A DNA stretch of 64,000 nt from Promethearchaeota archaeon (GCA_048940645.1 JBHLOI010000011.1:14103-78102); one strand, 5' to 3'. Shown: positions 14,135 through 34,029, counted from the first letter of the stretch. The notes: generated by a model from the letters alone, not told the origin. Numbers and translations are program-made.

Positions 14135-14150
14135 TTTTTTCTTTAAATAT
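14135..14150 (+). promoter_or_regulatory. Promoter element, TTTTTCTTTAAATA class
   Basis: 'ttttttctttaaatat', 53 nt upstream of ATG 14204. Confidence 0.4.
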
Positions 14151-14194: not shown

Positions 14195-15280
14195 TTGAAA
14201 ATTATGCAACTAGTAGAAGTTATAAGGGATATACAAACACGAATTCTAGAAAATCCAGATGAAATTATGAAATACATTCAAATTGGCATAAGTATCCCTA
14301 TATTGCCAGAATTTTGGAAATATATGCGAAGTGATTTCGAAGAATACAATGCCAAATCGATCATTCTCGAAGAGGAAGTAGGTACAGAAACATTTGGAAA
14401 GATGACCGATAAAGTAATTGGTCATACATTAGTCTATAATGACGGTGGGGATGTCTTATTTTTTGGATTTTTTAGGGTAATCGATCATGATCCGCGAAAT
14501 ATCGAGGTTTTAGTAAATAGAATAATTGAGTATGCTCGTGAAAACGATTTCACTTCGATTCGAGGCCCCATTAATGTACCCACGGTCATTTTTGGATGGG
14601 GTTTTATGGTTGAAGGGAGTAGAAAAGATTTATTTATCGGCTCACCAGTAAATCCCCCAATTTATCAGAAAATGTTCATGGAAAAGGGGTTTACGATAAA
14701 ATTTCAAGAGGATAGATATTGGATGCCTGCTATGAAAATGGATCCATACCGTAATCCTGCTTTAAAAAAGAAAGGGGTAAATTTTGCAGAATATGAATTT
14801 TCCAATCCAGGGTTAGAAGGGATGATGCAAATCAAGGATGAGTATATCGAAATCCATGCAGACTATATGCCTCCTTCGGCAAAAATTACTCCCAAAGCAT
14901 CAAAAAACTTTGATAATATTGTGGATTTCGTACATAGATATGGGACTAATTGGATGATGTGGATTGTGCGTCATAAAGCAACTGGGCAGCTTGCAGCCTG
15001 TGGTTACGTAATTCCAGATGTATTCCATAAAGACAGAAAAGGAGAACTTGACTCGATTAGCTTTCATGACTGGGTAGTCCATCCTAACCATCGTCGTAAA
15101 TATCTCTCCATGCTAATGTACGGAGAAACTTCATTACGAGCAAAAGACCGAAAAACACCTCACTATATAAAACGGGGTTCATGGCCAGTGGGAGCTGACA
15201 ATATTGCCAATGCCAATGCTGCTAAAAAGATGGGCGGAAAAAAAGATAGAAGCCATGTAATATTACAATTGGAGTTATAA
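14195..15280 (+). CDS. Hypothetical protein, possibly GNAT-like acyltransferase fold
   Basis: Long ORF with conserved-looking blocks ('VLFFGFFRVIDHD', 'IRGPINVPT') that I cannot assign safely. The listed start is TTG 14195; ATG 14204 is more likely. Confidence 0.3.
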   Translation: MKIMQLVEVIRDIQTRILENPDEIMKYIQIGISIPILPEFWKYMRSDFEEYNAKSIILEEEVGTETFGKMTDKVIGHTLVYNDGGDVLFFGFFRVIDHDPRNIEVLVNRIIEYARENDFTSIRGPINVPTVIFGWGFMVEGSRKDLFIGSPVNPPIYQKMFMEKGFTIKFQEDRYWMPAMKMDPYRNPALKKKGVNFAEYEFSNPGLEGMMQIKDEYIEIHADYMPPSAKITPKASKNFDNIVDFVHRYGTNWMMWIVRHKATGQLAACGYVIPDVFHKDRKGELDSISFHDWVVHPNHRRKYLSMLMYGETSLRAKDRKTPHYIKRGSWPVGADNIANANAAKKMGGKKDRSHVILQLEL

Positions 15281-15328: not shown

Positions 15329-15664
15329 TCATTCTTGATCAATTTTCTCTTTTAAACCATGATAAATAGTATTAATCCTTCCTCCTATTTGTTCTAAAAA
15401 TTCATTTCTTTCTTTTAGTTCTTTTAGCAACCTATCTGACGTTAAATTATGATGGGTATCATTTTCTAGCCTAACATACGAGGGGAAAAACTTTAATAGA
15501 TCCTCTTTCATTTTGATACGAGATTTTAGAATATATTCTCGAAGCTGCTTCTCGCTAATCTTTCCCGAAACTGCTTGATTAATAATGAGCTTTAATTTAT
15601 AAAACTCCTCTTTTTTTAATAATACATCATCTAAAGCATCTTCTAATATGGTACTTATTTTCAT
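15329..15664 (-). CDS. Small alpha-helical / coiled-coil protein, last gene of the VirB4-like cluster
   Basis: 111 aa, rich in charged heptad-like sequence. It starts 7 nt after the stop of the 1234-aa gene. Confidence 0.5.
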   Translation of the reverse strand: MKISTILEDALDDVLLKKEEFYKLKLIINQAVSGKISEKQLREYILKSRIKMKEDLLKFFPSYVRLENDTHHNLTSDRLLKELKERNEFLEQIGGRINTIYHGLKEKIDQE

Positions 15665-15671
15665 AGTATTA

Positions 15672-18600
15672 TCACCTATTTAAAAATTTTTTTAAGCTGA
15701 TATACCAATCATACACCAAATTATACACTTCATTAGCTAAATGTTCCTGATTACCTGTTCTTAGCTCAATTTGCTCACACCTTTCGAATAAGCTTAATAA
15801 ATCATCAGCATAGAAAGGAAATCCTTGAATATCAGAAATTAGCTTGATAAACTCAACAACATTTTTTTTAGTAATTTCATTCTCAGGATGATAATAGTGA
15901 AGATAACACCTCTTAAAATAATCTGATAAAAACACTTTTAACATTTTAAGACTAGCAATAAATTGTTTATTTTCGATAAAATAGTTAATATTAAATAGAT
16001 TTCGTAACATTTTTCCGTCAAAATTAAGCGTAAGTACGTTCTTAAGTCTTATTTGAGTTTCATGTGATAATTTAGGTGTTAAAAATCGGGGAACTCCAGA
16101 TGATTCCTTTTTAATTACATTAAATACAATATGACCCGGATTATTTGATTTCGCTTCATAATATTCCTGTATTGCTTTCTCATAAGCAGGACCAATAATT
16201 AGACAAGTCCTTGTAGATTGGCCACCTCCCGCAGCTCTGGGATGGTCTTCTACTAAATAATCATATCTTCGTAAAATTTCATAAATAGTATCTCGGATTA
16301 TCATAATTTGTTTTTTATTTTGAGAATAATTTTGAGAAATTTTGGGATGTAAATATTCCAAGAGCAATTTCTTTATTTTTTTTTCGTACAAGCCAGCAAC
16401 ATTTTGTACAGCTTTTATTTGTTTAAAAAATCTAATTAATTCATTTCGATATTCGATGTATTCCCCTAAATCTCGTTCAAGCTTAGTTTTTTGAGCCAAG
16501 CTTAAAATCTTTTTTTCACTAAATTTCAAATCATAACCTAGGGTATCCATATGATCTACAATTTTATTATATTCCAATGGTTTCGCATTATTCACATCAT
16601 CAATCAGGAGTATTACTGGAAATGACTGTTCCACGTCCGAACGTTTCATAAGTATTTGATTATGCTTTAAGTTTCGTAAGAAATGGATTTGATAATTCTC
16701 ATTCCTTGTGGAACTATAATATCCCGTCCCATGTAACTCATTTAAGTTTAACAGATTTGATAATGTGGCAATATCGCGTGAATCTGTGGTCCGAAAGGTC
16801 ACTAAATTGCTCAAAAATTTATATATATTAGGATGTAAATAGCGAATCTCATTTGCAGAGCAAATAATACCAAAGTTCTTTTCTTTTAAGGGATCAAAAA
16901 ACTTATCTATTAAACCATAATTTGCCACTTTATCTAAGTAGGCATTCTCAAAAACGATATCAACATGAGGGAGAAAAATAAATTTAGAGAAATATCGGGG
17001 TGAATTCTCACAGTAGCGGATTAATTTTGAAAGGACCAAAAACATAAGGTAACAGAGCGTTTTATAATCCTTTGAAATAGAAATATCTACAATAACCGTA
17101 TGATGAGTAGTGATGAATTCATGTACTTTCACTATATTCTCATCTGTAGTATGCAAAAACGTTAAATCTTCTTGAGAAATATCACTTAGAGTAGAGAGCA
17201 ATCCCTCAACAGTTGCATTTTTCTCATATTCTGGTTTGTGCTGAAGATCAATCTTTGCCAAATTTAAGTTTCCCCCATATTGACGAATACTATTTTTAAA
17301 GCTGTGCATAAAACGCTCATCTTTTCTAAAACTCATCGCATATGCCTCAAACATATACTCTAAATACTTGATATTATCATTTTCATAGGGAATTTCAGAA
17401 TCAAACGGATCTAGCGTAAAAGCCTTTCCTAATTTAAAATATAAGATATTCTGTTGAAACTTTGTATTTTCAAAGTAAGTTAGCAATCTTGACCATCTCC
17501 CGGTAAAATCAAAAATAAGGCAGGGGATTTCCTTTTTAATAAGTTCAGCAGCCATTTTCATATTAAGTAGTTCTCTATTAAAGTTTGTACCATTTGTAAT
17601 CAATAAAGAATGAAGTTGTTCAAACAAAAATCCTGCTGGAACCTCTTCTCTCAATGTTTCTGTGTTTAAAGCGCGTCCAATTTCAATAAAATTGTCTAAA
17701 TGTAAGGGAGTATTAAACTCAGTTGCAATCTGGACATCTATTCCTTTCTTTAGTTCATTTGGGATGGTAATAATGCTTATAAGTGCAGTTCCTTGATACA
17801 CCACATGCCACAGGTGGGAGCCATTAGAATAAATATTATTGTTTTTTACCAGCTCGCATTGGAAACCAGATTCTAATAATTGTTTTTGAAGTTTGATCAA
17901 TTGAAATCTTTTAAAATTAGTTCGGAAGGTTTCCAGGAGTACAGTTCCCGCTTTATATAGCTGTTTATTAATGATGGATATAGATTTCGTGGAAACATGT
18001 TGGGTAGGTACACGAAATGAAGTTGAAAGTGAAAAAATTGATTCCCAAATACCACCACGTCTATCTAACCAATTATATCTATCCTCATCATTAAGTAACC
18101 GTCTTACGATGAAATTCCTTACTTTTTCACGAGTCTCCTTCGCATATTTCTTATCCACCTCAGCAAATGAAAGTGGACGGGAAATTGCTGTATAGGTAAA
18201 AGGTAGTTGATATCGGTTTACTCCTGAGAAAAATTTACTGAATGAACCAAATGGAGGCTTTAAAACCTTATTTACGGTGTACATTTTTATTCCGATTAAT
18301 TCTTTGTTATCCATATGGGCAAAGAGAATATCAGGGATACGATTGGATAGAAAAAATCTTACATTTTGAAAGGGATCCACAACACTAATCTCTTGATAGT
18401 TAAAAAATTTTAAAGAGAATAGTTGAAAAAAGATGTTTTTCCACCAAATAATCAAGAGCACGGGGATGAAAATTATATTAAACATTATAATAAAAAGCAT
18501 GGGAAAAGAAAGAAGTACGAAGTATGTATTGAAGATTACTAATAGTAGTGAGCTGAATATTGTTCTGAGTAGTGTAATTCTTTTACTAAAAGTGTTTAGA

Positions 18601-19376
18601 GTAGTTTTTTCAATAGAAACATCATTAAAGTCTTCTTGAAAAAGAGAAGATCTGATCGCGCCAATTATAGCATTACTTTTAAGAGATGTGACATGAAAAT
18701 GATGGTAATCGGAAGCAAATAAAGATTTAAGTTTTGCTCCGTAATGAAATAATTTTTCATTTAGTTGTCCAATTTTACGGGAATTTAGCGTCCCTTGTGT
18801 AGAGCTAAATACAACGATATAGATATAGGTCTTGAATGCTCCAGATCTTTTTTTGGTATGTACTACTTGATAGGTGAAGGGGACATACTCATTAATATCT
18901 GAAAATGCTTTTAAGAAATGCATTAGAGAGGGATGTACATTTTCAGCCATCACCCTAATAGAAAAGATTTTCATTCCAACTGTAAGAAGATCTTTATAAT
19001 TTGTATAATACAATGTGCTTTGATCTTCCTTTATCTGCCAAAAAATGATATCCTTAAATGGATGGAACGTGGATTTCCCTCTCCATATAAAAAATGCTTC
19101 ATAAAAAACTAAGGAAAACCCTAACTCCAAGATAATTGTTAGACCTATTGTTAAATATAGGTTATTGCTCAAAAAATATGTCCCTATCATGAATAAAAAG
19201 CCAAAAATTAAGAGAAATATAGTCTTGCTTAAGGAATACTTTATGGAGATATCTCTCCGAGAAGGTTGTTTTTCCCAGATATATTGATATTGGAGTGATG
19301 ATTGAGAAGAATTCTTTTCTTTTTTCTTAGCAACTAATTTCTTTTCATGCAAATATTTTGTATAAAATTGGACCAT
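15672..19376 (-). CDS. Polytopic membrane protein with a VirB4/HerA/FtsK-like translocase domain (Walker A degenerate)
   Basis: Two TM hairpins (residues ~50-98 and ~266-320) are each followed by similar soluble segments ('VGMKIFSIRV..VPFTYQVV' / 'IGIKMYTVNK..LPFTYTAI'). The block 'LHSLLITNGTNFNRELLNMKMAAELIKKEIPCLIFDFTGRWS' is laid out like the P-loop strand/helix plus the next strand of HerA/VirB4. 'FGIICSANEIRYLHPNIYKFLSNLVTFRTTDSRD' resembles the C-terminal part of that fold. Confidence 0.5.
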   Translation of the reverse strand: MVQFYTKYLHEKKLVAKKKEKNSSQSSLQYQYIWEKQPSRRDISIKYSLSKTIFLLIFGFLFMIGTYFLSNNLYLTIGLTIILELGFSLVFYEAFFIWRGKSTFHPFKDIIFWQIKEDQSTLYYTNYKDLLTVGMKIFSIRVMAENVHPSLMHFLKAFSDINEYVPFTYQVVHTKKRSGAFKTYIYIVVFSSTQGTLNSRKIGQLNEKLFHYGAKLKSLFASDYHHFHVTSLKSNAIIGAIRSSLFQEDFNDVSIEKTTLNTFSKRITLLRTIFSSLLLVIFNTYFVLLSFPMLFIIMFNIIFIPVLLIIWWKNIFFQLFSLKFFNYQEISVVDPFQNVRFFLSNRIPDILFAHMDNKELIGIKMYTVNKVLKPPFGSFSKFFSGVNRYQLPFTYTAISRPLSFAEVDKKYAKETREKVRNFIVRRLLNDEDRYNWLDRRGGIWESIFSLSTSFRVPTQHVSTKSISIINKQLYKAGTVLLETFRTNFKRFQLIKLQKQLLESGFQCELVKNNNIYSNGSHLWHVVYQGTALISIITIPNELKKGIDVQIATEFNTPLHLDNFIEIGRALNTETLREEVPAGFLFEQLHSLLITNGTNFNRELLNMKMAAELIKKEIPCLIFDFTGRWSRLLTYFENTKFQQNILYFKLGKAFTLDPFDSEIPYENDNIKYLEYMFEAYAMSFRKDERFMHSFKNSIRQYGGNLNLAKIDLQHKPEYEKNATVEGLLSTLSDISQEDLTFLHTTDENIVKVHEFITTHHTVIVDISISKDYKTLCYLMFLVLSKLIRYCENSPRYFSKFIFLPHVDIVFENAYLDKVANYGLIDKFFDPLKEKNFGIICSANEIRYLHPNIYKFLSNLVTFRTTDSRDIATLSNLLNLNELHGTGYYSSTRNENYQIHFLRNLKHNQILMKRSDVEQSFPVILLIDDVNNAKPLEYNKIVDHMDTLGYDLKFSEKKILSLAQKTKLERDLGEYIEYRNELIRFFKQIKAVQNVAGLYEKKIKKLLLEYLHPKISQNYSQNKKQIMIIRDTIYEILRRYDYLVEDHPRAAGGGQSTRTCLIIGPAYEKAIQEYYEAKSNNPGHIVFNVIKKESSGVPRFLTPKLSHETQIRLKNVLTLNFDGKMLRNLFNINYFIENKQFIASLKMLKVFLSDYFKRCYLHYYHPENEITKKNVVEFIKLISDIQGFPFYADDLLSLFERCEQIELRTGNQEHLANEVYNLVYDWYISLKKFLNR

Positions 19377-19382
19377 AACTTA

Positions 19383-20249
19383 CTATTCCCCTCGCTTAAA
19401 TAATTTGCGATAGATAATAAAGAGAAGTAATGCTACCCCCAGAAAGGTAATTAGATACATGCTTAATACAGATACTAAATGCTGAAAGACTAACGACTCA
19501 TATATGATAACAGCGTCTAAGAGAATGAAGACTATCACCCCCCCTAGAAGTAAATATTTAAGGCTTACCTGCTGAGAGATTTGATAATAGATATTATAAG
19601 TCAATTTTCCCGTAGCAGAAATACGTCCTTTAGATTTGTTTTTTAGAGAAGATTTTAATCTATTTAACTGTAAAGTTTGTTCAAAAGAATCTTTATTAAA
19701 GGAATCCTCCATTGACTTTCGTAATACTTTTTGTTTTTGTGCGATTTGTTGAAAAAGAAGAGATTTAACACGATCCCGATGATTAATTTTTTTCTTTCCT
19801 TTATTTGTTAAATATGAAAAGAGGTTTAAATCTGAATACTCATGCATATCTTTTGCTTCAAATGATTTGTATACGTTTGGAACATCAATCTTTCGTATTT
19901 CATAATAAATTTCATAAAGTTCTTTGATATGATTATAGGGTAGGTCCCCTCTGAGCTTCATAAATAAAAGTTCTATGGTTTTTAGTGATTCGACAATTTC
20001 TTCAGGAACAATAATAACTTGTACAGATTTATAAAAAATTTGATTGATAAACTCGATATATTCAAATAAATGTTCATATTCAGTTTTTTTTCGGGCACGT
20101 ATTCCTAACTTAGCACTTATTTCATCTACTTTATTACTAATTAAGATTAGGCCTACTACTGCCAATTTTTTATAATTACCGGTAGCTTTGCATAACCGTA
20201 TTAAATTTTTTAGTTTTGAATCAGATAATTGAATATTCATTTTTATCAT
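19383..20249 (-). CDS. Hypothetical protein with a C-terminal TM hairpin
   Basis: 288 aa: soluble helical N-terminal part, then the C-terminal 'LLLGGVIVFILLDAVIIY..LSMYLITFLGVALLLFIIY'. There are 6 nt to the next gene. Confidence 0.5.
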   Translation of the reverse strand: MIKMNIQLSDSKLKNLIRLCKATGNYKKLAVVGLILISNKVDEISAKLGIRARKKTEYEHLFEYIEFINQIFYKSVQVIIVPEEIVESLKTIELLFMKLRGDLPYNHIKELYEIYYEIRKIDVPNVYKSFEAKDMHEYSDLNLFSYLTNKGKKKINHRDRVKSLLFQQIAQKQKVLRKSMEDSFNKDSFEQTLQLNRLKSSLKNKSKGRISATGKLTYNIYYQISQQVSLKYLLLGGVIVFILLDAVIIYESLVFQHLVSVLSMYLITFLGVALLLFIIYRKLFKRGE

Positions 20250-20250
20250 T

Positions 20251-20937
20251 TCACCTTTTATAATCCTTTTTATGTTTATCTAGCTTTAGCTCCTCTTCTC
20301 TGATATATTTATCAAAATCCAGAGGTTCTTGAATTTTTTCAAGATAACGGTTAATTAAGTTTTCAGGAGAGTATGATTCCTTCTCGAATGAGTTTAACGT
20401 ATGGTAATAAAATATGGTATAAGGAAATAAAAGAATAAATCCAATTATTTGTATTAAATACCCAATATGAATTGTGTATAGAAATTGCACTTCTAGATTA
20501 GGATCATTCTGTTCTATAAATGGGAAATACAAATTATTTGGAAATAAATACCAAATAGGGTATATAAAGATATAGAAAGCGGTAAATAACACAGTGAAAA
20601 TGTGAATATATGCATAAAACCGTAATTTTTGAAATGGATGATCCTTCTCAATATCTTTAAATAAAACGCCAAATATAGAGAGGATTACCGATATAATAAA
20701 CAAAATTGTCATTGCAAGAGGTATAGAACTATTTTTTGGTTTATACAGTTCATTAAATATTGAACCAGAGGCAAATACAGGACTGTACCAATCAAAAAGT
20801 GGAGTATAACTCCAATAAATAACTTGTTCTCCTTCTATATTAAACCCTTGGAGAACATACCAATCTAAAAACAATGAAATTACAGCTAACACTAACCCAA
20901 TTACAAATAATTTCCTAAATATACTTTTTATTTCCAT
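20251..20937 (-). CDS. Polytopic (about 4-5 TM) membrane protein
   Basis: 228 aa, hydrophobic throughout, with a charged C-terminal tail. The gap to the downstream gene is 1 nt, and a promoter-like element lies upstream. Confidence 0.5.
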   Translation of the reverse strand: MEIKSIFRKLFVIGLVLAVISLFLDWYVLQGFNIEGEQVIYWSYTPLFDWYSPVFASGSIFNELYKPKNSSIPLAMTILFIISVILSIFGVLFKDIEKDHPFQKLRFYAYIHIFTVLFTAFYIFIYPIWYLFPNNLYFPFIEQNDPNLEVQFLYTIHIGYLIQIIGFILLFPYTIFYYHTLNSFEKESYSPENLINRYLEKIQEPLDFDKYIREEELKLDKHKKDYKR

Positions 20938-20970
20938 ATTGATTATCCCTTAGTAAGGCTAGGTTGTAAG

Positions 20971-20985
20971 TATATAAAGAAAAAA
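20971..20985 (-). promoter_or_regulatory. Promoter element, TTTTTCTTTAAATA class
   Basis: The minus strand reads 'ttttttctttatata', 33 nt upstream of ATG 20937 and directly after the stop of the upstream gene. Confidence 0.4.
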
Positions 20986-20992
20986 TCACTAC

Positions 20993-22699
20993 TTAATCAT
21001 CTAAAAAATCCCCAAATCGAGCTATATATTCTGATTCTATTTCAGATTTTCCTTCTTTCTCATGTTCAAATAGCTCATTGTAATCATGTTCCGTTTTTTC
21101 AACCAAATAATTCTCTGCCTGTTTTTGTTCAATCTTGGTCAATACCTTGTGAGTAGTTATTTTACCAAAGCATTCATACCCAAATTGCAGCATGAGTTCA
21201 TCGGTAAGCTCCTGGGAAATAATCTCTAAACTGGTATCATCCAAGGATAATGCCCTCTGATGATGTGGTACCAAGAAACCATTTTTAATTTCGCGCTGTT
21301 TCACCCTAAAAGTATAATAGAGATATCCAATCATTCCTGCATAGACTCCCAATATTCCATAACTTAAACCAATAAATGTCTGTAATAAAAATCCTAACTG
21401 TGATAATGCAAGAGTTATCATTAATGCCCCAAATCCCACAAAGGGTATCGAATATTGGCGTATCTTTTTTTGAAAGCTTTCTTCAACCTTGTATAATCTC
21501 TTTTCAGGGGGTTCCTCATGGTTATATTCTTCAATATTATAATATTTCTTTTCTAGAAAGCGTATTAATCTAGTCAATTGGTTAGTCTCTATGAAATGAA
21601 TATTTGAGACCCTCTGAAAGGCAAAAGGAAGAGATTTTTCGATAAACTGTATAGCAGAATTGGAGATAAGGATTGGATCAATATATGGTTTAAATTGAGT
21701 TTGTCTAGAATATAGTGAGACGTCTATTGAGGTACTTTCACTTATGTCCATTTCTACCATGAGATACTTTTGAAGATAATGGAATATCTGTTTACGCTGA
21801 GTTATATTTTCTATTAAAACTTGCTGAATTTGTCTTAATTCCTCGATCCAAGTATCTAATTGCATATTTTTCTCCGATAATGAGTGAAATTTTACCTTTT
21901 GTTCTGAGACAATCAAATTATCCTCTATTAAATTAACTATTATAGGGCAAATTAATAAAATGTTCTTAGAGTTTTGCGTTTCAATAGTTTTGATAATAGT
22001 GAGATCAATATTAGAAAAGATATTTTCTAACTCCTTGCCAATTTGAGGGAAGATGTGAAACCCTTCACCTATTACTTTTTTACTGATTTTTTGGATGAGA
22101 ATATCTTCTTCTTTCAACTCACCCTCAATGGAAATCTTACTAAAAATATTCTCTTTTTCTATATCAATTTTGGCTGCTAGTATTTCTTCCTTCCTTTCCA
22201 ATCCCATTTCTGTTTTTGTATATTTTGAAAGTAAACTTTGATGTGGGTAAAAATATTCATTAACATCCAAATCAGTTTCATGAACATATCCCAAATACTC
22301 TTTAGCTGCTTTAACAAATTTTTTAGCAGTTGCTAGGCCAATCCCTTCTACGGTTGCCAATATTTTAGGAGAAGCTTTGGCAAGTTGGTCGATAGAATTA
22401 TACCCAGCTTCCTTTAAGTTTATGGCATGGATAGAGTCAATGCCATTTACTTCTGTCAAATCATTTTTATCTTCTTTGATAACTGCTATTTTAGGTTTAC
22501 GAGAAGTTAGGTTTGCCTTTATATGATTTGTAAATATTTCGAATTTAGGCTTCCATTCAGCATCAAGTTGCAATTCTGCTTCCTTTAATCCTCTTTCGGA
22601 AAACTTTATAGCTTGTTCTATATCTCCAGCTTCCATAGCTTGCTGTGCCATATTATAGATATATTTTAAATCCCATTTTTCATCAATCATATTTTGCAT
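20993..22699 (-). CDS. Membrane-anchored protein with an N-terminal (HhH)2 DNA-binding module
   Basis: 'LTEVNGIDSIHAINLKEAGYNSIDQLAKASPKILATVEGIGLATAKKFVKAAKEY' closely resembles the RadA N-terminal HhH domain. A TM hairpin 'IPFVGFGALMITLALSQLGFLLQTFIGLSYGILGVYAGMIGYLYY' lies near residue 420-465. Confidence 0.55.
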   Translation of the reverse strand: MQNMIDEKWDLKYIYNMAQQAMEAGDIEQAIKFSERGLKEAELQLDAEWKPKFEIFTNHIKANLTSRKPKIAVIKEDKNDLTEVNGIDSIHAINLKEAGYNSIDQLAKASPKILATVEGIGLATAKKFVKAAKEYLGYVHETDLDVNEYFYPHQSLLSKYTKTEMGLERKEEILAAKIDIEKENIFSKISIEGELKEEDILIQKISKKVIGEGFHIFPQIGKELENIFSNIDLTIIKTIETQNSKNILLICPIIVNLIEDNLIVSEQKVKFHSLSEKNMQLDTWIEELRQIQQVLIENITQRKQIFHYLQKYLMVEMDISESTSIDVSLYSRQTQFKPYIDPILISNSAIQFIEKSLPFAFQRVSNIHFIETNQLTRLIRFLEKKYYNIEEYNHEEPPEKRLYKVEESFQKKIRQYSIPFVGFGALMITLALSQLGFLLQTFIGLSYGILGVYAGMIGYLYYTFRVKQREIKNGFLVPHHQRALSLDDTSLEIISQELTDELMLQFGYECFGKITTHKVLTKIEQKQAENYLVEKTEHDYNELFEHEKEGKSEIESEYIARFGDFLDD

Positions 22700-22720: not shown

Positions 22721-22737
22721 TATATTTAAAGAAAAAA
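22721..22737 (-). promoter_or_regulatory. Promoter element, TTTTTCTTTAAATA class (leaderless geometry)
   Basis: The minus strand reads 'ttttttctttaaatata', 21 nt upstream of ATG 22699. Confidence 0.5.
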
Positions 22738-22750
22738 TTTTTTCTATTTC

Positions 22751-24232
22751 CTAAGAGACTATCTTAATTTTCTTTTTTCCTTGTATAGTTTTAGTTTTTG
22801 TCAGATAGTGGTTGATCAATTCATTCTTTAACTTTTCTGCTGCTTTTTCAATTTCACTTGCTGTCATTTCTTCAGTCTCATGTCCTGCATACTTATCCCA
22901 AGGAGAATCTGTCATAGAAATTTCTTCTTTTTGAAAAATTTTAAGCCCCCAACGGTTAGGATTTTTCCAATAGGGAGTTCCTGGAAATATTTGCAAGATT
23001 CGAATATCAGCAATATCCATCCCTGCACCATCTAATTCGAAAATTAAATCTTTTGTTTCTTGTACTGACTGCCAATTTTCTCCTGGTAATCCTATAACCC
23101 ACGAGCTACCACATAATAAGTCATACTTTTTTGCTGTCCCCACAGCATTGAATAAGTTTTTCACATGTTGATAACCATTACCATGATCCTTACCATTAAG
23201 TTTTTTCAAGACTTGAGGAGAACCAGATTCAGCCCCAAACCAAACAAAAAACGGATCAATTTGCTTTGTAAGTTTGGCAATATTATCAGTAAATAAGTCA
23301 GCTCGCGTTTCAAACATCAGTTTTATGTCTATTTCTGCGTTTTTATACATTTCTACAAACTTACTTAATCTTTGCTTGTTAAGAGTAAACGTTGAGTCTA
23401 CTAGGTATCCCCCTTTACATCCATATTCATCTAATATTTTAAGTTCTTGTCTTAAATTGCTTAGCGGTCTAAATTTTGCTTCTAATCCCCAAAAGTTTGC
23501 ATGTGCACAGAATGGACAATTAAAGGGACACCCTCTTGATGCTTGGATGTTGCAAAAGTGATTATCTTTCATGTAATCTGTAATACATAATCCCTCAAAA
23601 TCATAGGGCGGTATTTTGCTTAAGTCTGGTTCTACAGCATAATAAGGAGAAACATTTATCTTTCCTTTGCGAGTTCTAAAGCAAAAACCTTGGATATTTT
23701 TTCTTTCATTTAACAAAGGATGTTGGATGTATTGCTGAATAGCGACTTCTGCTGGACCTCGTATTAATTGATCAATTGATGAGTGTTTTAAGAAAAAGTC
23801 AGGATACATCGATGGTAATATTCCACCAATCATCACTGTTGTAGCCTGATTTACTTTTTTAACAATATTAGCATACCTAAAAGATTCATGAGCAGCTTCA
23901 GGGGAACCAATCGTCATCCATACTTCATTATAATCAATAGCTCTAATTTTTTGTTCAATTTCATCATCATTAACATATCGTTTTGTTGCATCCAAAATGA
24001 AAGGAATATGATGAGTTTCGACATTACTTTGCTTAGCGATTGAAGATAGCTGAGCTAAACCTAACGGTATTGAATGCAAGCTAGTAAGACGTAATCGATA
24101 TTTCCGATAGATTAAACCTATAGCGTAAATCAATAAATTATTTTTGCTTTTATTTTTTATATTTTGATCTTTGGTTAAAATTTCAAGTGGAGTATTGATA
24201 GGTTCTAAAAGTAACACATTCTTAAGTTTCAT
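22751..24232 (-). CDS. B12-binding-domain radical SAM enzyme
   Basis: 'ASRGCPFNCPFCA' (CxxxCxxC) sits after an N-terminal Rossmann-like segment, followed by 'GAESGSPQVLK'. Confidence 0.75.
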   Translation of the reverse strand: MKLKNVLLLEPINTPLEILTKDQNIKNKSKNNLLIYAIGLIYRKYRLRLTSLHSIPLGLAQLSSIAKQSNVETHHIPFILDATKRYVNDDEIEQKIRAIDYNEVWMTIGSPEAAHESFRYANIVKKVNQATTVMIGGILPSMYPDFFLKHSSIDQLIRGPAEVAIQQYIQHPLLNERKNIQGFCFRTRKGKINVSPYYAVEPDLSKIPPYDFEGLCITDYMKDNHFCNIQASRGCPFNCPFCAHANFWGLEAKFRPLSNLRQELKILDEYGCKGGYLVDSTFTLNKQRLSKFVEMYKNAEIDIKLMFETRADLFTDNIAKLTKQIDPFFVWFGAESGSPQVLKKLNGKDHGNGYQHVKNLFNAVGTAKKYDLLCGSSWVIGLPGENWQSVQETKDLIFELDGAGMDIADIRILQIFPGTPYWKNPNRWGLKIFQKEEISMTDSPWDKYAGHETEEMTASEIEKAAEKLKNELINHYLTKTKTIQGKKKIKIVS

Positions 24233-24321: not shown

Positions 24322-24337
24322 TTTTTTCTTTATATAT
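24322..24337 (+). promoter_or_regulatory. Promoter element, TTTTTCTTTAAATA class
   Basis: 'ttttttctttatatat', 34 nt upstream of ATG 24372. Confidence 0.45.
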
Positions 24338-24371: not shown

Positions 24372-24677
24372 ATGGGTGTAGAACCGTTAAAAGAAAATGG
24401 CAACATGAAACCTATTCCAAGAAAGATTTTTAAGTGCCCATTTTGTGGATTTTTAATTGAACTTGAAGTGGATCGTACATTATTCACACGGTATGTGAGC
24501 GAAAGCCACTTTTTGTATCCCCACTTGCATATTCATGGCAATCCACTTCATGGAACCCTCTGTTATTTGGATCCTAACATGGCAATACGAAATATTGAAA
24601 TTATCAGAAGTATCGAGATATTCAGGAGTTCCGATACATTCCAACAACTACTAAATAAATGCTTAAATCAGTTATAA
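24372..24677 (+). CDS. Small Cys/His-containing protein overlapping the helicase start
   Basis: 'FKCPFCGF' plus a His-rich 'YPHLHIHGNPLHGTLC'. The 3' end overlaps the next gene by 19 nt. Confidence 0.4.
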   Translation: MGVEPLKENGNMKPIPRKIFKCPFCGFLIELEVDRTLFTRYVSESHFLYPHLHIHGNPLHGTLCYLDPNMAIRNIEIIRSIEIFRSSDTFQQLLNKCLNQL

Positions 24678-27217
24678 TAAAGATAGGTGAGCTTATTACT
24701 CTTTTAAATTTTACTAAAAAAGGTGAAAATGATGTTGAGCACCATAAAGAGGAAATTTTCAATTATATCCATGACGAGCGAATTCTACGAGTATTATTTG
24801 AACAAAAAATTTTTCAGCTAAGAAATATCCAGAAAAAAGCGATTGAAAAGGGATTGTTTTTTAGAAAATCATTTCTAGTATGTGCTCCCTCAGGATCTGG
24901 CAAAACTATGATCGGAGAAATTTGCGCATTCCAAAACATTTTTAATAATTATGGAAAGTCTGTATATTTAGTCCCCTTTAAAGCCCTGGCTACAGAGAAG
25001 TATTACTATTTTAAAAAATATTATAGCAGGTTCAATGTAAATATTGAGTTATCCATAGGAGATTATGATATAGATGATTCCGTATTGGCTAAAGCAGATA
25101 TTATTATCACTACATATGAGAAAATGGATTCAATTCTTCGCAATTTTTATGATAAAGAGTGGATCCATGATATATCTACAGTGATAGTAGATGAAATTCA
25201 TATCATTGGTGAGTCAGATCGAGGTCCACGACTTGAATCACTAATTGTGCGGTTAAATGAATTCTTAAATTACCCCCAAATTATCGGACTTTCAGCTACC
25301 ATAGCCAACTCTCAATTTTTTAATAGCTGGTTATCTTCATTAGGGAACAATACTACACTTATTCTATCTAATGAGCGACCTGTACCTCTACATTATCAAC
25401 TGAAAGTTACTCAAAATAAAGATTCTACCATTAAAAAAATTATTAAAAGCACGTTAGATCAAAAAGGTCAAGTGCTTGTCTTCCTAAATAAGCGAAAGTC
25501 TACCCAACAGACCTCATTTCTACTAAAAAATGTAGTAATAAATCATATTGACATAAATAATCTTGATAATTGTAAAAAATTAGAGAAATCCTTAGAGGGG
25601 ATCAAGGGAGGACATAAGGAACTCAAAAAAATTGTAAAGTATGGATTGGCATTTCATCATGCTGGATTATTACCAAAAGAAAGAAAGTTAGTCGAGGATA
25701 ACTTCCGGAAGGGAATATTGAAAGTAATTTGTAGCACTACTACGTTAAGTGCTGGGATTAACACCCCTGCAAGAGTCGTGATTCTTAGGGATTTTAAAAA
25801 ATACGTCATTTCTGGGCATAACATCAAAAATTTTTCAGGGTATTATGAAAATGGAGATGGTTTTTCCTATTTTAAACCCTTCTCAGCAAATCAAGTATTT
25901 CAAATGTTAGGGAGGGCAGGTAGACCTGGACTGGATGCTGTTGGCTATGGGATTATTTTGGTAAATAATGTGGAGGAACGGAACTGGATTGAGGATAAAT
26001 ATTTCCAAACTCTTTTAACTAAAGAAAGGCTTATCCCAAAGTATAATAACCTTGATTCTGGTTTGAATAAATTAAATACACTTAAAGAACAAGTGCTTTT
26101 AAGAATTTATGAGGAGGGAAATATCACAATAGATCAACTTAAATTATTTTTCGAACGTACATATTTTTGGTTTAATGTTAAACACAGAATGAATGATCAG
26201 CAAATCCCTATTGAACAATTTCTCATGATTAAGGAAATCACCCCCGAAAATATTCTCAAGCTCCATTCGGATAAGGAAAGGGTTAAAAAATTAGAATCCA
26301 AAAAAGATCAAATAAAGCTTTCGGAGATAACTAACTCTACAATCATGGGATTTATTAAAACTGCTTTTGGTGTGTTCACATGCCGATTTGATATTGATTC
26401 TGGGATTCAATGTTCCTGTGGCTTCAAGAATGGGATTTCTGATAATTTTGCCAATGATGAGTTTGCATTTGAATTTTGCGACCATATTACCTCTTTTTTG
26501 AAATACCTCATTGATGTCCCTGATCCAAGTTTCCAGAAGTACATTTCAGACATCATACCCAAATCAATTAAAAATCAATATATTCTTAATTATTTATTCG
26601 AAAAAGGGTTAATTATAAAGAATAATAATGGGCTGATTAAATGCTCTCAATTTGGTAAATTGATTATTAGATTATATCTGTATCCCGTATCTGGAGTTCT
26701 CATTCGTCATAAATTAGAAAATTGTGCGTTAAATACTTTTCAAGAAATTATTAAAGAGGCATATGACGTTTTACGAGCAGAATATAAGGTAAGAGATTAT
26801 AAAATGCTCCAACCGATTTTAGAATGGACAGATGAGGTTCCAATTGAGGAGATTTTAGAGAGATATAATATTATGGCCGGTGATTTGCATATGATCAGAG
26901 ATAATTTAGAGAGGATCATAACATTTATTGGGATTATTGCCATTCATTTAAGCGAAAATGGGTTTGATATTCAAGATGCTATGATTCGAGTATCAGAAAT
27001 GGCAGAAACTCTCAAAATTCGTATTCATTATGGGATAAAAGAAGAATTATTTGACTTAGTATTACGATTAGATAACGTGGCACGAGTGAGGGCACGTATC
27101 TTATTTGATGCGGGATATCATACTGCTACTAAGGTGAAAAAAGAAGTTCCCTATATTTTGCATCGTAAAACAGGATTAGGTGTAAATTTATGTAAAAAAA
27201 TTATCAAAGGAAAATAA
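24659..27217 (+). CDS. hel308: Ski2/Hel308-like SF2 DNA helicase with an inserted SWIM-type zinc motif
   Basis: Motif I 'APSGSGKT', motif II 'VDEIH', motif III 'SAT', motif VI 'QMLGRAGRPG'. The C-terminal HhH-like 'VARVRARILFDAGYHTATKV' matches Hel308 domain 5. The insertion is 'CSCGF..(19)..CDH'. Confidence 0.8.
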   Translation: MLKSVIIKIGELITLLNFTKKGENDVEHHKEEIFNYIHDERILRVLFEQKIFQLRNIQKKAIEKGLFFRKSFLVCAPSGSGKTMIGEICAFQNIFNNYGKSVYLVPFKALATEKYYYFKKYYSRFNVNIELSIGDYDIDDSVLAKADIIITTYEKMDSILRNFYDKEWIHDISTVIVDEIHIIGESDRGPRLESLIVRLNEFLNYPQIIGLSATIANSQFFNSWLSSLGNNTTLILSNERPVPLHYQLKVTQNKDSTIKKIIKSTLDQKGQVLVFLNKRKSTQQTSFLLKNVVINHIDINNLDNCKKLEKSLEGIKGGHKELKKIVKYGLAFHHAGLLPKERKLVEDNFRKGILKVICSTTTLSAGINTPARVVILRDFKKYVISGHNIKNFSGYYENGDGFSYFKPFSANQVFQMLGRAGRPGLDAVGYGIILVNNVEERNWIEDKYFQTLLTKERLIPKYNNLDSGLNKLNTLKEQVLLRIYEEGNITIDQLKLFFERTYFWFNVKHRMNDQQIPIEQFLMIKEITPENILKLHSDKERVKKLESKKDQIKLSEITNSTIMGFIKTAFGVFTCRFDIDSGIQCSCGFKNGISDNFANDEFAFEFCDHITSFLKYLIDVPDPSFQKYISDIIPKSIKNQYILNYLFEKGLIIKNNNGLIKCSQFGKLIIRLYLYPVSGVLIRHKLENCALNTFQEIIKEAYDVLRAEYKVRDYKMLQPILEWTDEVPIEEILERYNIMAGDLHMIRDNLERIITFIGIIAIHLSENGFDIQDAMIRVSEMAETLKIRIHYGIKEELFDLVLRLDNVARVRARILFDAGYHTATKVKKEVPYILHRKTGLGVNLCKKIIKGK

Positions 27218-29325: not shown

Positions 29326-29340
29326 CTTTTTCTTTAAATA
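29326..29340 (+). promoter_or_regulatory. Promoter element, TTTTTCTTTAAATA class
   Basis: 'ctttttctttaaata', 49 nt upstream of ATG 29390. Confidence 0.4.
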
Positions 29341-29389: not shown

Positions 29390-30613
29390 ATGATTACCAA
29401 AAAAGTAGTTCCTTATATTGTACAACGGGAGGAGTTATTTCCTAACACGATAGATGAATATCTGAGAAGGCTAATCCCTCTGGTAAATGTAAACATTAAT
29501 AGTGGAGCATGTTATCCATTTGAGCTGGAACATCGGTTAGGAAATACTAAGATCAATCCCTTTCTAAGAATTGCCCACCCAGATGATGCTCCAATCATAG
29601 CTGATATTTGTAAGGAAGTCTATGAGAATTCCTATCCCTATAAAGAAATGGAAGATGAGACATATGTGCGCAGCATGATCAAAAGCCCAACCAATCACTT
29701 TATCTTATTTGAAACAGAATCAGGAGAGAATGCCGGTTGCTTCCGCTGTGCTTTGGATTTCGAGCATAAAAAAGGCTATATGGGAGGATTCATGGTGCGT
29801 CACAAGTTCCAGAATAAGCTGGATGTGATTCGAGCAATTATGGGATCCTATATCTGGATGTGGAACTCATTTAAGGAAGATATTTTGGTATGGTATTGTG
29901 AAAATCGAACTGCCCATGCTTCTTCTCAGTATATTACCGCGGTATGCGGAATTAACACCATTGCTATCTTTCCCAATAAGGACATTTTTTTTGGACAAAT
30001 CGAGTCTGATGTAATGGGAATCATTTATACCGAAAAGGTTTTACGAGAGATGAGAAGTGCTTTAGTTCCAACTCTCATTCCTTCAGCATTAAATTCATTT
30101 TTTTATTCAGATAAATTATATAGTCTCGGAAATATTAGAGTTGCCCAGCCATCTCTCAACCTGGATTTTAACTATATAAAAGGAATCTATGAGAATGTAA
30201 GGTGTGAATTTGAGGACGATAAGTATGGGTATAAACATTTTAAGTTCACAATTGCAGGAACAGATTCTTACTTTACATTCTTGCATAATACTCACATCCA
30301 GAATTTTGAGAAAGCTGATTATTCAGTCCAATCATTAGAGGAACTTTTTGTATTTATTGAATTTTTAAAAAAATTTATGAAGGAAAACACTATTCGCTAT
30401 TGCGAGATGTTTATCTCAGCATATCGGCCTAAACATCAACAATTATTTTACGATGCCGGATTTCGGGCTCGAGGATATATTCCATGCTGGAACTACATAC
30501 CAGAACAAAACAAATTTGAAGATTATATAGTGTTTAACTATTTTGAAGGCAATATTGAAAATATAGATTTATTACCTCTAGGATATGACCTGCTAAATTG
30601 TATAGAAGTTTAG
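29390..30613 (+). CDS. Hypothetical protein, N-terminal part GNAT-acetyltransferase-like
   Basis: 'RIAHPDDAPIIADICKEVYENSYPY...HFILFETESGENAGCFRCALDFEHKKGYMGGFMVRHKFQ' has GNAT-like spacing. The assignment is weak. Confidence 0.3.
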   Translation: MITKKVVPYIVQREELFPNTIDEYLRRLIPLVNVNINSGACYPFELEHRLGNTKINPFLRIAHPDDAPIIADICKEVYENSYPYKEMEDETYVRSMIKSPTNHFILFETESGENAGCFRCALDFEHKKGYMGGFMVRHKFQNKLDVIRAIMGSYIWMWNSFKEDILVWYCENRTAHASSQYITAVCGINTIAIFPNKDIFFGQIESDVMGIIYTEKVLREMRSALVPTLIPSALNSFFYSDKLYSLGNIRVAQPSLNLDFNYIKGIYENVRCEFEDDKYGYKHFKFTIAGTDSYFTFLHNTHIQNFEKADYSVQSLEELFVFIEFLKKFMKENTIRYCEMFISAYRPKHQQLFYDAGFRARGYIPCWNYIPEQNKFEDYIVFNYFEGNIENIDLLPLGYDLLNCIEV

Positions 30614-30647: not shown

Positions 30648-31151
30648 TTACACTTTTAATAAAGTAAAATAGGCTTTTTCTGTATACTTTAAAACTCCAT
30701 TTTTTATGGATCTTCTAATTAGCAATTTTAGTTCTAAGGGAGGGATATCATAATCTTTTGCTAGTATTTCAATCATATAGGCTGGAAATTTTTTATACCT
30801 TGAAGCTAATGTGTTTAGCAAGGCCTGAAATGTTAAAGTATAATCTTCCTTTTCTTTTGAAGTAAGTTTATCACTGAGTGCTTTTGGTGCAGAAAATAGA
30901 ATAAATTCATTTTCAATTGAAAATTGAGCCTCGCCCAAAGAATTTTGCTGTTGTTTCACTTTGTTTACCGCTTCAGTCATTCCATAGACGATTTCTCCCT
31001 TATCTAAAATGTTCCTGACTTGATGAATTCTACCACAACGCAAACATTTTTTAGTTTTTTGGGTAGTTTTCACATAAGAATACTGTTGACATTTAGTACA
31101 AATAAAAACCACATAAGGAGTTTGATCTTTTTCCCATTTTCTCTGCTCCAT
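30648..31151 (-). CDS. Zinc-ribbon protein (DUF1922-like)
   Basis: 'FICTKCQQYSYVKTTQKTKKCLRCGRIH'. Its start overlaps the helicase stop (TAATG). Confidence 0.5.
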   Translation of the reverse strand: MEQRKWEKDQTPYVVFICTKCQQYSYVKTTQKTKKCLRCGRIHQVRNILDKGEIVYGMTEAVNKVKQQQNSLGEAQFSIENEFILFSAPKALSDKLTSKEKEDYTLTFQALLNTLASRYKKFPAYMIEILAKDYDIPPLELKLLIRRSIKNGVLKYTEKAYFTLLKV

Positions 31152-33304: not shown

Positions 33305-33309
33305 TATTT

Positions 33310-33894
33310 TTACTCTCCAGAATTAATTAATATTTTATTATCGTTAAGAATTAGTTCTTTAATTGGCTTATTCCCGCGTTGGTAAGAAAGAATCTGAACT
33401 CCAAGATCTACAGCTAATTTAGTAGGATATATTAAGCCATTCCCTCGATGTTCGAAAAAATAGGGATGGGTTCCTTTTAGTCTCTTAACTTTTTGAATGA
33501 GTTCTGAATTATTATATAAGACGTCAAATCCTCTACCAATCTTTATATGTTGGAAGTAAAAAATAATATCGCTTAATAAATTTGATTCTGCTTTAGTAAG
33601 ATTAATCTCATTAACCTCCAAATTATCTCCATCTTTTATTAGTGACTTTTTCTTCAGTGCTAAGTAAAGATTTGTGTTTTTCCTTTTTTTATACAGTATA
33701 TATCCATCTAACTTAAAATGAAATAGTTCTTGAAACTGAAATATGAGATTTAACAACTCTTCACCCTCTTTTGGAAGCAACCCAAGAACGTCTTCTAATT
33801 TGCTAAAGTTAAAATTGGAATTTTGATGTTCATTGAATCGTTTTAAAATGTCTAATATTTCATGTAATTTTTGAATTTTCCAACTTGAGGGCAT
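33310..33894 (-). CDS. Hypothetical protein, first gene of the Hef-like operon
   Basis: 194 aa. It ends 5 nt before the helicase ATG, and a leaderless-type promoter element lies 21 nt upstream. Confidence 0.45.
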   Translation of the reverse strand: MPSSWKIQKLHEILDILKRFNEHQNSNFNFSKLEDVLGLLPKEGEELLNLIFQFQELFHFKLDGYILYKKRKNTNLYLALKKKSLIKDGDNLEVNEINLTKAESNLLSDIIFYFQHIKIGRGFDVLYNNSELIQKVKRLKGTHPYFFEHRGNGLIYPTKLAVDLGVQILSYQRGNKPIKELILNDNKILINSGE

Positions 33895-33915
33895 CTAATC
33901 CTATAAGTCGTAGTG

Positions 33916-33931
33916 ATATAAAAAGAAAAAA
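33916..33931 (-). promoter_or_regulatory. Promoter element (variant, leaderless geometry)
   Basis: The minus strand reads 'ttttttctttttatat', 21 nt upstream of ATG 33894. Confidence 0.4.
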
Positions 33932-34029
33932 TTATGGGTAGTTACAAAAATCAGTGATAAAAAAATAGATCATAATATTCATAGTAATGTAAAAAATTAA
34001 TCATCACTGAGTTTTGTATCAACCCAAAA

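Follow-up and report, generated by a model that had tools for sequence, protein, structure and literature searches.

Ced and Ted are chromosomal DNA importers of Crenarchaeota that derive from type IV secretion systems (T4SSs) and lack a relaxase (PMC9905601). CedB and TedB are described as ATPases powering transport, and Ted has been linked with HerA and Rad50 (PMC9905601). In the Ced system, CedB and CedD together constitute one VirB4 N-domain (PMC11868833). Here, we describe a five-gene cluster of Asgard archaea at positions 15329-22699 of a 64,000-nucleotide (nt) stretch of DNA from a Promethearchaeota archaeon (GCA_048940645.1, JBHLOI010000011.1:14103-78102), hereafter called the window. 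The core of the cluster is a 1234-amino-acid (aa) protein that is, judged by its predicted structure, a full-length homologue of VirB4, probably a pseudo-ATPase and not a motor, and it is encoded together with a membrane protein carrying a helix-hairpin-helix (HhH) module. The five open reading frames (ORFs) are, in order of transcription:

20993..22699, minus strand: HhH568, a 568-aa membrane protein (ORF, Pfam, NCBIfam, AlphaFold2, orthologue alignment)
20251..20937, minus strand: TM228, a 228-aa protein with four transmembrane (TM) segments (hydropathy, orthologues)
19383..20249, minus strand: p288, a 288-aa protein (hydropathy, orthologues)
15672..19376, minus strand: the 1234-aa VirB4-like probable pseudo-ATPase, core of the cluster (AlphaFold2, Foldseek, profile search)
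15329..15664, minus strand: cc111, a 111-aa small helical protein (ORF, locus comparison)

The genes are separated by 55, 1, 6 and 7 nt, and with a GC content of 0.30-0.32 the cluster resembles the remainder of the window. An earlier note on this DNA had listed five co-directional minus-strand genes with these lengths and spacings, and the ORF coordinates match it exactly; the membrane segments it assigned to the 568-, 228-, 288- and 1234-aa proteins are likewise reproduced by hydropathy. Judged from the positive charges flanking these segments, the soluble mass of the cluster proteins would be almost all cytoplasmic. Searches of curated family libraries recognised none of the five proteins, the matches to HHH_5 and to the RadA N-terminus being confined to the HhH segment of HhH568.

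Predicted fold of the 1234-aa protein

The 1234-aa protein itself matched nothing in Pfam and NCBIfam (both at E-values up to 1), PADLOC, PHROGs or the PDB sequences; its family profile also came back empty against the PDB sequences, and distant members of the family are without a Pfam domain. A word-indexed homologue search returned seven relatives only, all from Asgard archaea, and an exhaustive profile search widened the family to 268 representative clusters (50% identity), comprising around 60 full-length ones (1230-1340 aa) and a distant tier that includes a subfamily of ~840 aa. In one Hodarchaeota metagenome-assembled genome (MAG), the big gene is split into three consecutive ORFs of 716, 205 and 198 aa (L005, 142-3546), which could be due to assembly frameshifts or mark a pseudogene.

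The AlphaFold2 model, built from a 74-sequence alignment and covering aa 35-1234, has a predicted local distance difference test (pLDDT) score of 87.6 and a predicted template modelling (pTM) score of 0.68. When the model was compared with the PDB using Foldseek, ranks 1-7 were all TrwK/VirB4 of the R388 T4SS (8rtd, 7o42, 7o43, 8rtb, 7o41), with E-values from 1.4e-16 to 3.3e-12. These alignments run over ~910-1000 columns and cover the entire ~800-aa VirB4, including its N-terminal domain. The next tier, matching the core, consists of HerA hexameric translocases and HerA defence complexes (SIR2-HerA, DUF4297-HerA, TdpAB) at E-values of 1e-9 to 1e-6, and in BFVD, a library of viral structures, VirB4-like and HerA-like phage proteins rank first. 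On the strength of this model, the 1234-aa protein is a full-length structural homologue of VirB4. The VirB4/HerA-like layout that the earlier note had read from the sequence is borne out, and the significant similarity to additional strand catalytic E (ASCE) translocases is present at the level of structure, with no sequence-profile match. The parts of the protein are as follows:

18591..19268, minus strand: module A, aa 37-262, TM hairpin 1 (aa 47-98) and an alpha/beta domain (hhalign, A against B)
17772..18590, minus strand: module B, aa 263-535, TM hairpin 2 (aa 269-322) and an alpha/beta domain (hhalign, Foldseek)
16497..17771, minus strand: VirB4/HerA-type RecA-like core, aa 536-960, with degenerate catalytic motifs (AlphaFold2, Foldseek, column counts)
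17571..17594, minus strand: Walker A position, aa 595-602, NGTNFNRE (column counts, 74 members)
16959..16982, minus strand: Walker B position, aa 799-806, FIFLPHVD (column counts, 74 members)
15675..16496, minus strand: helical C-terminal tail, aa 961-1234 (AlphaFold2 secondary structure)

The N-terminal half is an internal duplication, in which a TM hairpin followed by a VirB4-N-domain-like module occurs twice: hhalign aligns module A with module B over 222 columns at a probability of 98.9% and an E-value of 1e-17. The same program revealed no other hidden relationship among all partner proteins and modules. The hairpins lie N-terminal to the N-domain modules, the position that VirB3 occupies in VirB3-VirB4 fusions, and hairpins fused to modules in this manner could stand in for VirB3. 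Within the tail, a unit at aa ~1020-1062 is arranged as helix-helix-helix-strand-strand and carries the conserved YLVExHPxxAxGxESxRTSY; in the model it resembles a winged helix, and at the equivalent position the ~840-aa subfamily, represented by an 847-aa member, gives weak PadR/HTH_34 matches. The tail profile found nothing among the PDB sequences.

Loss of the catalytic motifs

At the Walker A position, the family consensus is [N/G]G[T/S]xxxRE, as opposed to the canonical GxxGxGK[S/T], and GK[S/T] occurs in none of the 74 aligned members. At the Walker B position, hhhhP[H/N]h[D/E] takes the place of the canonical hhhhDE, which is likewise seen in 0/74. The AlphaFold2 model shows a strand, a short loop and then a helix at the Walker A position. 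A regular-expression search for P-loops found none in any of the five cluster proteins. Because Walker A and B are absent from all 74 diverse members, the 1234-aa family is, on these alignments, probably a family of pseudo-ATPases and not of motors. The earlier suggestion of a P-loop translocase acting as an ATP-driven motor of the VirB4/Ced type is not supported by this result, with the motifs missing in 74 of 74 sequences and no P-loop in the cluster.

The HhH membrane protein

HhH568 begins with a helical region, followed by two consecutive HhH motifs that form an (HhH)2 module and, after a disordered linker, by an alpha/beta domain (aa ~197-392); a TM hairpin and a second helical region make up its C-terminal part. 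The hairpin region spans aa ~398-476, and hydropathy places the hairpin around aa 417-465. The extreme C-terminus carries the motif (K/R)(Y/F)(G/S)xFL(E/D)D, conserved among orthologues, and relatives of the protein are present in 47-57 loci. The module is located at:

22298..22462, minus strand: (HhH)2 module of HhH568, aa 80-134 (HHH_5, RadA N-terminus, Foldseek)

This segment matches Pfam HHH_5 with an E-value of 6.9e-10 (39.7 bits against a gathering cut-off of 27) and the NCBIfam RadA N-terminus with an E-value of 6e-8, in agreement with the RadA-like (HhH)2 module noted earlier. The second hairpin, GIGLATAKKF, is canonical, and the first reads GID here and GIG in most orthologues. In the AlphaFold2 model of HhH568 (alignment of 21 sequences, pLDDT 73.4), the segment folds as (HhH)2, and Foldseek matches it to the N-terminal domain of RAD51/RadA, the AR2 domain of NusA and domain 5 of Hel308; against 8xbw_L the module gives a TM-score of 0.78 and a root-mean-square deviation of 1.3 over 55 columns. 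The alpha/beta domain, TM hairpin and C-terminal helices had no Foldseek match in the PDB. A homologue search with the HhH-family profile yielded no additional sequences.

The window also encodes a RadA recombinase at 41333-42562 on the plus strand (409 aa, NCBIfam RadA E-value 4e-96), which has an extra C-terminal HhH-like segment (aa ~342-408) besides the usual N-terminal HhH. The N-terminal HhH of this RadA is 33% identical to the module of HhH568.

Conservation of the gene cluster

A survey limited to one genome per species gave 73 loci, and all 73 are from Asgard archaea (Promethearchaeota under various labels). The HhH, four-TM and p288 genes lie upstream in order in 42 of the 54 loci having at least 3.6 kb of upstream sequence, and the median gaps along the cluster are 48, -4, 3 and -1 nt across loci. 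Close relatives retain the entire neighbourhood, and loci reached via distant HhH homologues (27-30% identical) show the five genes in unchanged order. The gene order, whose conservation had been left to be established, held down to 25-40% protein identity. Since the same arrangement recurs in dozens of genomes, it is far beyond chance, and the view that the five genes are mere neighbours with unrelated functions is scarcely credible when their order, their orientation and reading frames that overlap or nearly touch are kept in 42/54 informative loci at such identities.

The cluster is a vertically inherited chromosomal module, found here in Asgard archaea only. Library scans of the window proteins detected no integrase, relaxase, coupling protein or pilin, and a repeat search found no flanking or boundary repeats at the cluster, both as the earlier note had it with regard to these genes and to element boundaries. 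The window is free of tRNA genes and Rfam matches, the family has no relatives among IMG/VR contigs, and the five proteins have no PADLOC or PHROGs match. An origin as a mobile element or virus was considered and rejected on the lack of boundary repeats, tRNA/Rfam matches and IMG/VR relatives and on the chromosomal flanks, which are housekeeping genes in synteny.

The three smaller proteins

TM228 has a conserved aromatic outside loop, strongly conserved in the alignment, and a charged cytoplasmic tail. Its orthologues occur in 48-58 loci, invariably between the HhH gene and p288. It has no Pfam relative, and its profile gave chance-level TM matches or nothing against the PDB sequences. The next protein, p288, is composed of a basic N-terminal domain of ~225 aa, predicted to be cytoplasmic, and a C-terminal TM hairpin (aa 226-285), with a net charge of about +18. 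Orthologues are present in 51-61 loci, where the gene overlaps its upstream neighbour by a median of 4 nt (-4 nt). The DUF2207_C match of p288 in Pfam is sub-threshold only, and its profile found no relative among the PDB sequences, with chance-level TM matches or nothing. Counterparts of cc111 are often ~295 aa elsewhere, and at least 5 of 44 members of its family carry a Zc3h12a-type NYN ribonuclease domain (best E-value 1.5e-17); domain searches of the window's own cc111 found no nuclease domain. A 50%-identical homologue of cc111 adjoins the type-2 paralogue described below in L071.

Paralogous loci

Loci of a second type lack the HhH, four-TM and p288 genes. In these type-2 loci (L063, L060, L068, L071, L079, L044), the pseudo-ATPase gene is followed by a gene for a DUF87/HerA-type ATPase of 630-690 aa with GLTGxGK[S/T] and then by one for a protein of 1466-1745 aa, which in L063 (11778-18814) contains a TFIIB cyclin repeat and a C-terminal helix-turn-helix (HTH). 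Loci of both types are found together in individual MAGs, among them that of the nearest relative of the window (L015 with L071); none of type 2 lies within the window. A further arrangement is seen in L014 (5449-14288), from the ~840-aa subfamily. Here, module A is encoded by a gene of its own (257 aa, hhalign probability 97%). Next come genes for the 847-aa pseudo-ATPase, whose C-terminus is PadR-like, for a HerA_C/TraG-P-loop ATPase of 794 aa in which the motifs are intact (GIPKTGKS, ILEEAH), and for a 106-aa protein. The 106-aa protein is made of EEVEPIGD repeats, and a CxxCxxCC protein is encoded upstream. Comparison of the window's core with the HerA_C ATPase of L014 by hhalign was not significant (probability 0.5%); the register is sensible, as it is for the type-2 DUF87 ATPases, and is not counted as evidence.

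Several type-1 loci that are 75-93% identical, including the helicase described below, share one bin: L029, L036 and L078 in CSMAG_616, and L026 and L076 in 33X4. They were considered as true paralogues, but more likely reflect mixed strains, and were not used to argue for co-duplication of helicase and cluster.

Promoter-like elements

Two promoter-like elements of the B recognition element (BRE)/TATA kind stand at the cluster:

22723..22734, minus strand: promoter-like BRE/TATA consensus TTTCTTTAAATA, ~25-35 nt upstream of the HhH568 start codon
20971..20982, minus strand: promoter-like consensus TTTCTTTATATA, within the 55-nt gap and upstream of the four packed genes

Both are exact copies of TTTCTTTAWATA on the minus strand, one upstream of the 568-aa gene (22723-22734) and the other in the 55-nt gap (20971-20982), where a promoter element had been proposed before. 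The window contains 36 matches to TTTCTTTAWATA against 10.6 expected, and 0 of 100 shuffles reach 36. The copies lie mostly 25-45 nt upstream of start codons, in the correct orientation for many ORFs, and TTTCTTTAWATA is probably the BRE/TATA promoter consensus of this organism. Because two copies are found at the cluster, two promoters are plausible from the sequence, one for the HhH gene and a second for the four packed genes. Further copies are found, for example, at 14138-14149, 24325-24336, 29329-29340 and 36415-26.

Neighbouring genes

Two features beyond the five genes are conserved across many loci:

24372..27217, plus strand: p101 and Hel308-like helicase operon (DEAD, Helicase_C, Helicase_dom4_arc)
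29390..30613, plus strand: p407, a 407-aa protein resembling GCN5-related N-acetyltransferases (GNATs) (locus comparison, weak GNAT signal)

The operon encodes p101, a CPFC zinc-ribbon-like protein of 101 aa (24372-24677), and a Hel308-like helicase of 852 aa (24659-27217), which overlap by 19 nt. The helicase contains the only P-loop near the cluster. It matches Hel308 models with E-values of 1e-95 to 1e-120, below their curated equivalog cut-offs, and by these scores it may be a distinct paralogue of the Ski2/Hel308 family. In 31 of 34 type-1 loci with at least 7 kb of upstream sequence, the helicase adjoins the HhH gene on the opposite strand, with 65-93% identity, and the pair of p101 and helicase is kept together in 17 loci.

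Homologues of p407 are found in 32 of the 73 loci, and 31 of them are on the strand of the cluster, directly downstream of the cc111 gene. Half of the family (16/32 members) matches Acetyltransf_1 (best E-value 9e-5), and the best matches of its profile to the PDB are GNATs with E-values of 0.03-0.4. In the lineage of the window, p407 has been relocated and lies beyond the helicase as seen from the cluster, of which it may be a sixth member. The neighbourhood described in the earlier note was thus right in its five genes and incomplete beyond them, as the p101-helicase operon and the GNAT-like gene are also conserved.

The same note had placed a radical SAM gene directly upstream. The gene is real, a B12-binding radical SAM gene at 22751-24232 on the minus strand, between the helicase operon and the cluster. 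It is present at this position in only 2 of the 73 species-representative loci (L015, L016) and not in the close relatives L006 and L017. We therefore reject it as a part of the system and regard it as a lineage-specific insertion, confined at this position to the closest relatives. Among PADLOC models, the gene product matches best a candidate defence model, PDC-M51A (E-value 3e-12).

The other flanks in the window (amidase, amino-acid kinase, aminotransferase) are kept in the three closest genomes only. Further along the window, at 30648-36369 on the minus strand, lie genes for a DUF1922/DUF5817 protein, a 717-aa DEAD/RNA-helicase-like protein, a 194-aa ORF and a 779-aa prenyltransferase-domain protein, and L007, a distant locus, has the same set near its cluster. 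The plus strand encodes an AAA_22/nSTAND3-like P-loop protein of 235 aa at 39463-40170.

Proposed function and alternatives

The reading we put forward, and give about an even chance of being right, is that of a chromosomal T4SS-derived platform that handles DNA at the cytoplasmic face of the membrane, with the pseudo-ATPase as a scaffold. The five proteins would form one complex, anchored in the cytoplasmic membrane by their TM hairpins and with nearly all of their mass in the cytoplasm. This putative complex would be a domesticated derivative of the T4SS inner-membrane platform, by analogy with the crenarchaeal Ced and Ted, in which the VirB4-like subunit would act as an oligomeric scaffold or adaptor instead of a motor. 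In this reading, duplex DNA would be kept at the membrane by the (HhH)2 module, independently of sequence and perhaps helped by the putative winged helix and the basic domain of p288, and the complex would capture, tether or hand over DNA there. If DNA moves at all, the energy must come from another protein, and might be supplied by the Hel308-like helicase or by the canonical HerA-type ATPase of the type-2 loci. The missing motor, pilin and channel signatures, together with the little extracellular mass, argue against a classical DNA conduit, and the predicted, near-complete cytoplasmic mass would fit an envelope-spanning conduit poorly. What stands of the DNA-transfer apparatus first proposed for this locus is the VirB4-like fold, the HhH module and the synteny, whereas the ATP-driven motor is not supported and a conduit fits poorly.

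Several observations weigh against this platform. The link to VirB4 is a structural one only, with Pfam, NCBIfam and PDB sequence searches empty, and hhalign found no significant similarity between the core and the type-2 DUF87 ATPases (probability 11%). The conserved Arg-Glu at the Lys-Ser/Thr position and the conserved Asp/Glu near the Walker B position are reminders that loss of canonical motifs is no proof of lost nucleotide binding, and there is a small chance, judged from these residues, of an unusual nucleotide site. The HhH module is deleted in 3 of 21 HhH568 homologues, and DNA binding through it is therefore not indispensable everywhere; HhH modules can mediate protein contacts as well. 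In distant loci, the cluster proteins are 27-40% identical compared with 64-67% for the helicase, which is unusual for a core housekeeping machine. Finally, the wider synteny between the window and L007 is partly kept, so the helicase could owe its place beside the cluster to inherited synteny rather than to a shared function.

The best surviving alternative, though an unlikely one, is an active Ced-like or minimal-conjugation machine, in which a VirB4-like motor with a non-canonical site or an ATPase acting in trans would work with a four-TM channel and an HhH DNA receptor. VirB4 is indeed the best structural match, polytopic and small TM-hairpin partners are present, and the putative DNA-binding HhH module is supported by both sequence and fold. 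The conserved R-E pair at the P-loop position and the active HerA-type ATPase in paralogous loci of the same genomes would suit such a machine, for which Ced and Ted provide a precedent as chromosomal importers without a relaxase (PMC9905601). Yet Walker A and B are found in 0/74 members and a P-loop in none of the five proteins, no library gives a VirB6, VirB2, VirB8 or VirD4 signature, and the candidate channel has four TM segments only. In addition, all but short loops are predicted to be cytoplasmic, leaving nothing to span the S-layer or contact another cell. A bolder reading, which we regard as quite unlikely, would give Asgard archaea their own domesticated T4SS-derived DNA-exchange machine, analogous in function to Ced/Ted, with VirB4 as a passive membrane dock and the DNA driven or processed by the helicase or the HerA-type ATPase.

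Distinctly improbable is a membrane-anchored conflict or defence system, in which a HerA/VirB4-like sensor-scaffold would detect foreign nucleic acid and trigger the NYN nuclease or another effector. The pace of divergence speaks for it, the cluster proteins having diverged at three to five times the rate of the neighbouring genes, and so do the SIR2-HerA, DUF4297-HerA and TdpAB complexes among the structural matches, the NYN ribonuclease fusions, and the several paralogous variants per genome with swapped partners. Nevertheless, the five proteins have no PADLOC match, the best structural match is VirB4 and not a defence HerA, and the small subunit of the window is without a nuclease domain, while the type-1 locus occupies a fixed syntenic site beside Hel308 across a wide Asgard span and not variable islands. 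Also on divergence, the 361-aa ORF convergent with the cluster (14195-15280, plus strand) is 92% identical in relatives, compared with 52-88% for the cluster proteins.

In T4SSs, VirB4 also extracts pilin from the membrane. A platform for membrane-protein or envelope biogenesis that does not act on DNA could be imagined along these lines, with a dead VirB4 scaffold organising insertion, extraction or modification and the HhH module serving protein contacts. Apart from the small one, the cluster proteins are all anchored in the membrane, the four-TM protein has a strongly conserved outside loop, the neighbouring GNAT-like gene is conserved, and the HhH module is dispensable in some lineages. 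We nonetheless hold this platform to be no less improbable than a defence system, as modules for nucleic acids recur throughout (HhH, the putative winged helix, NYN, the Hel308-like helicase and the TFIIB-repeat/HTH giants of type-2 loci), and no known envelope-biogenesis domains were detected with Pfam or NCBIfam.

Significance

DNA exchange, uptake and organisation in Asgard archaea bear on ideas of how sex, recombination and the attachment of the genome to the membrane arose in the ancestors of eukaryotes. The family described here offers a concrete, widely conserved and experimentally approachable candidate, a putative VirB4-derived membrane complex with a putative DNA-binding subunit, encoded beside a repair helicase. 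A whole VirB4/HerA-type family without catalytic motifs, strongly retained and sometimes paired with an active ATPase, also raises the question of what role pseudo-ATPases play in secretion-like machines. If VirB4 were a passive dock with a separate driver, the tasks in moving DNA across a membrane would be divided in a way not seen before, in the lineage ancestral to eukaryotes.

Comparison with known systems

The 1234-aa protein resembles VirB4/TrwK over its whole length, with an N-domain and a RecA-like C-domain, and it too is encoded with small and polytopic membrane proteins. Unlike VirB4/TrwK, it has no Walker A or B motif and no sequence-profile membership, its module of hairpin and N-domain is duplicated, and it has an extra helical tail of ~270 aa. 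No VirB6, VirB8, VirD4, relaxase or pilin partners were detected by sequence, and, in contrast to VirB4/TrwK systems, the cluster is chromosomal, vertically inherited and found in Asgard archaea only.

HerA translocases show a second-tier structural likeness to the core, and paralogous loci encode bona fide DUF87/HerA_C ATPases beside the pseudo-ATPase. The 1234-aa protein differs from HerA in being membrane-embedded and without catalytic motifs, and VirB4 matches it better and over more length. In contrast to HerA-NurA, SIR2-HerA, DUF4297-HerA and TdpAB, no NurA, SIR2 or DUF4297 partner was found by Pfam, nor any PADLOC match. The module of HhH568 is like the N-domain of RadA/RAD51, AR2 of NusA and domain 5 of Hel308 in sequence and structure, but, unlike in these proteins, it sits in a membrane protein, and the remaining domains of that protein are without a match to known folds.

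Relative to Ced and Ted, the differences are several. CedB and TedB share the fold of the 1234-aa protein, which is without their catalytic motifs. There is no recognisable VirB6-like channel with 6-7 TM segments (CedA/TedA); TM228, the only polytopic partner, has four. Unlike CedA1/TedC, the VirB2-like pilin with two TM segments, no small secreted two-TM protein is encoded, the hairpin of p288 standing behind a 225-aa predicted-cytoplasmic domain. HhH568, p288 and the small helical/NYN protein have no counterpart in Ced or Ted, no sequence similarity was found, and the phylum is another. As for likenesses, Ced (CedA, CedA1, CedA2, CedB, CedD, CedE), Ted (TedA, TedB, TedC) and the cluster all combine a chromosomal VirB4-like protein with small TM proteins and are without a relaxase or coupling protein. 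A link to DNA-repair genes is common to both sides, through HerA and Rad50 in Ted and the Hel308-like helicase here, and the VirB4 N-domain is split or duplicated in both, as CedB/CedD and as the separate module A gene of L014. No paper describing the family or the cluster was found in the open-access literature, and an earlier description elsewhere is possible; as far as this literature shows, the comparison suggests that the cluster of HhH protein and probable pseudo-ATPase is a previously undescribed variant within the known VirB4-derived membrane systems of archaea.

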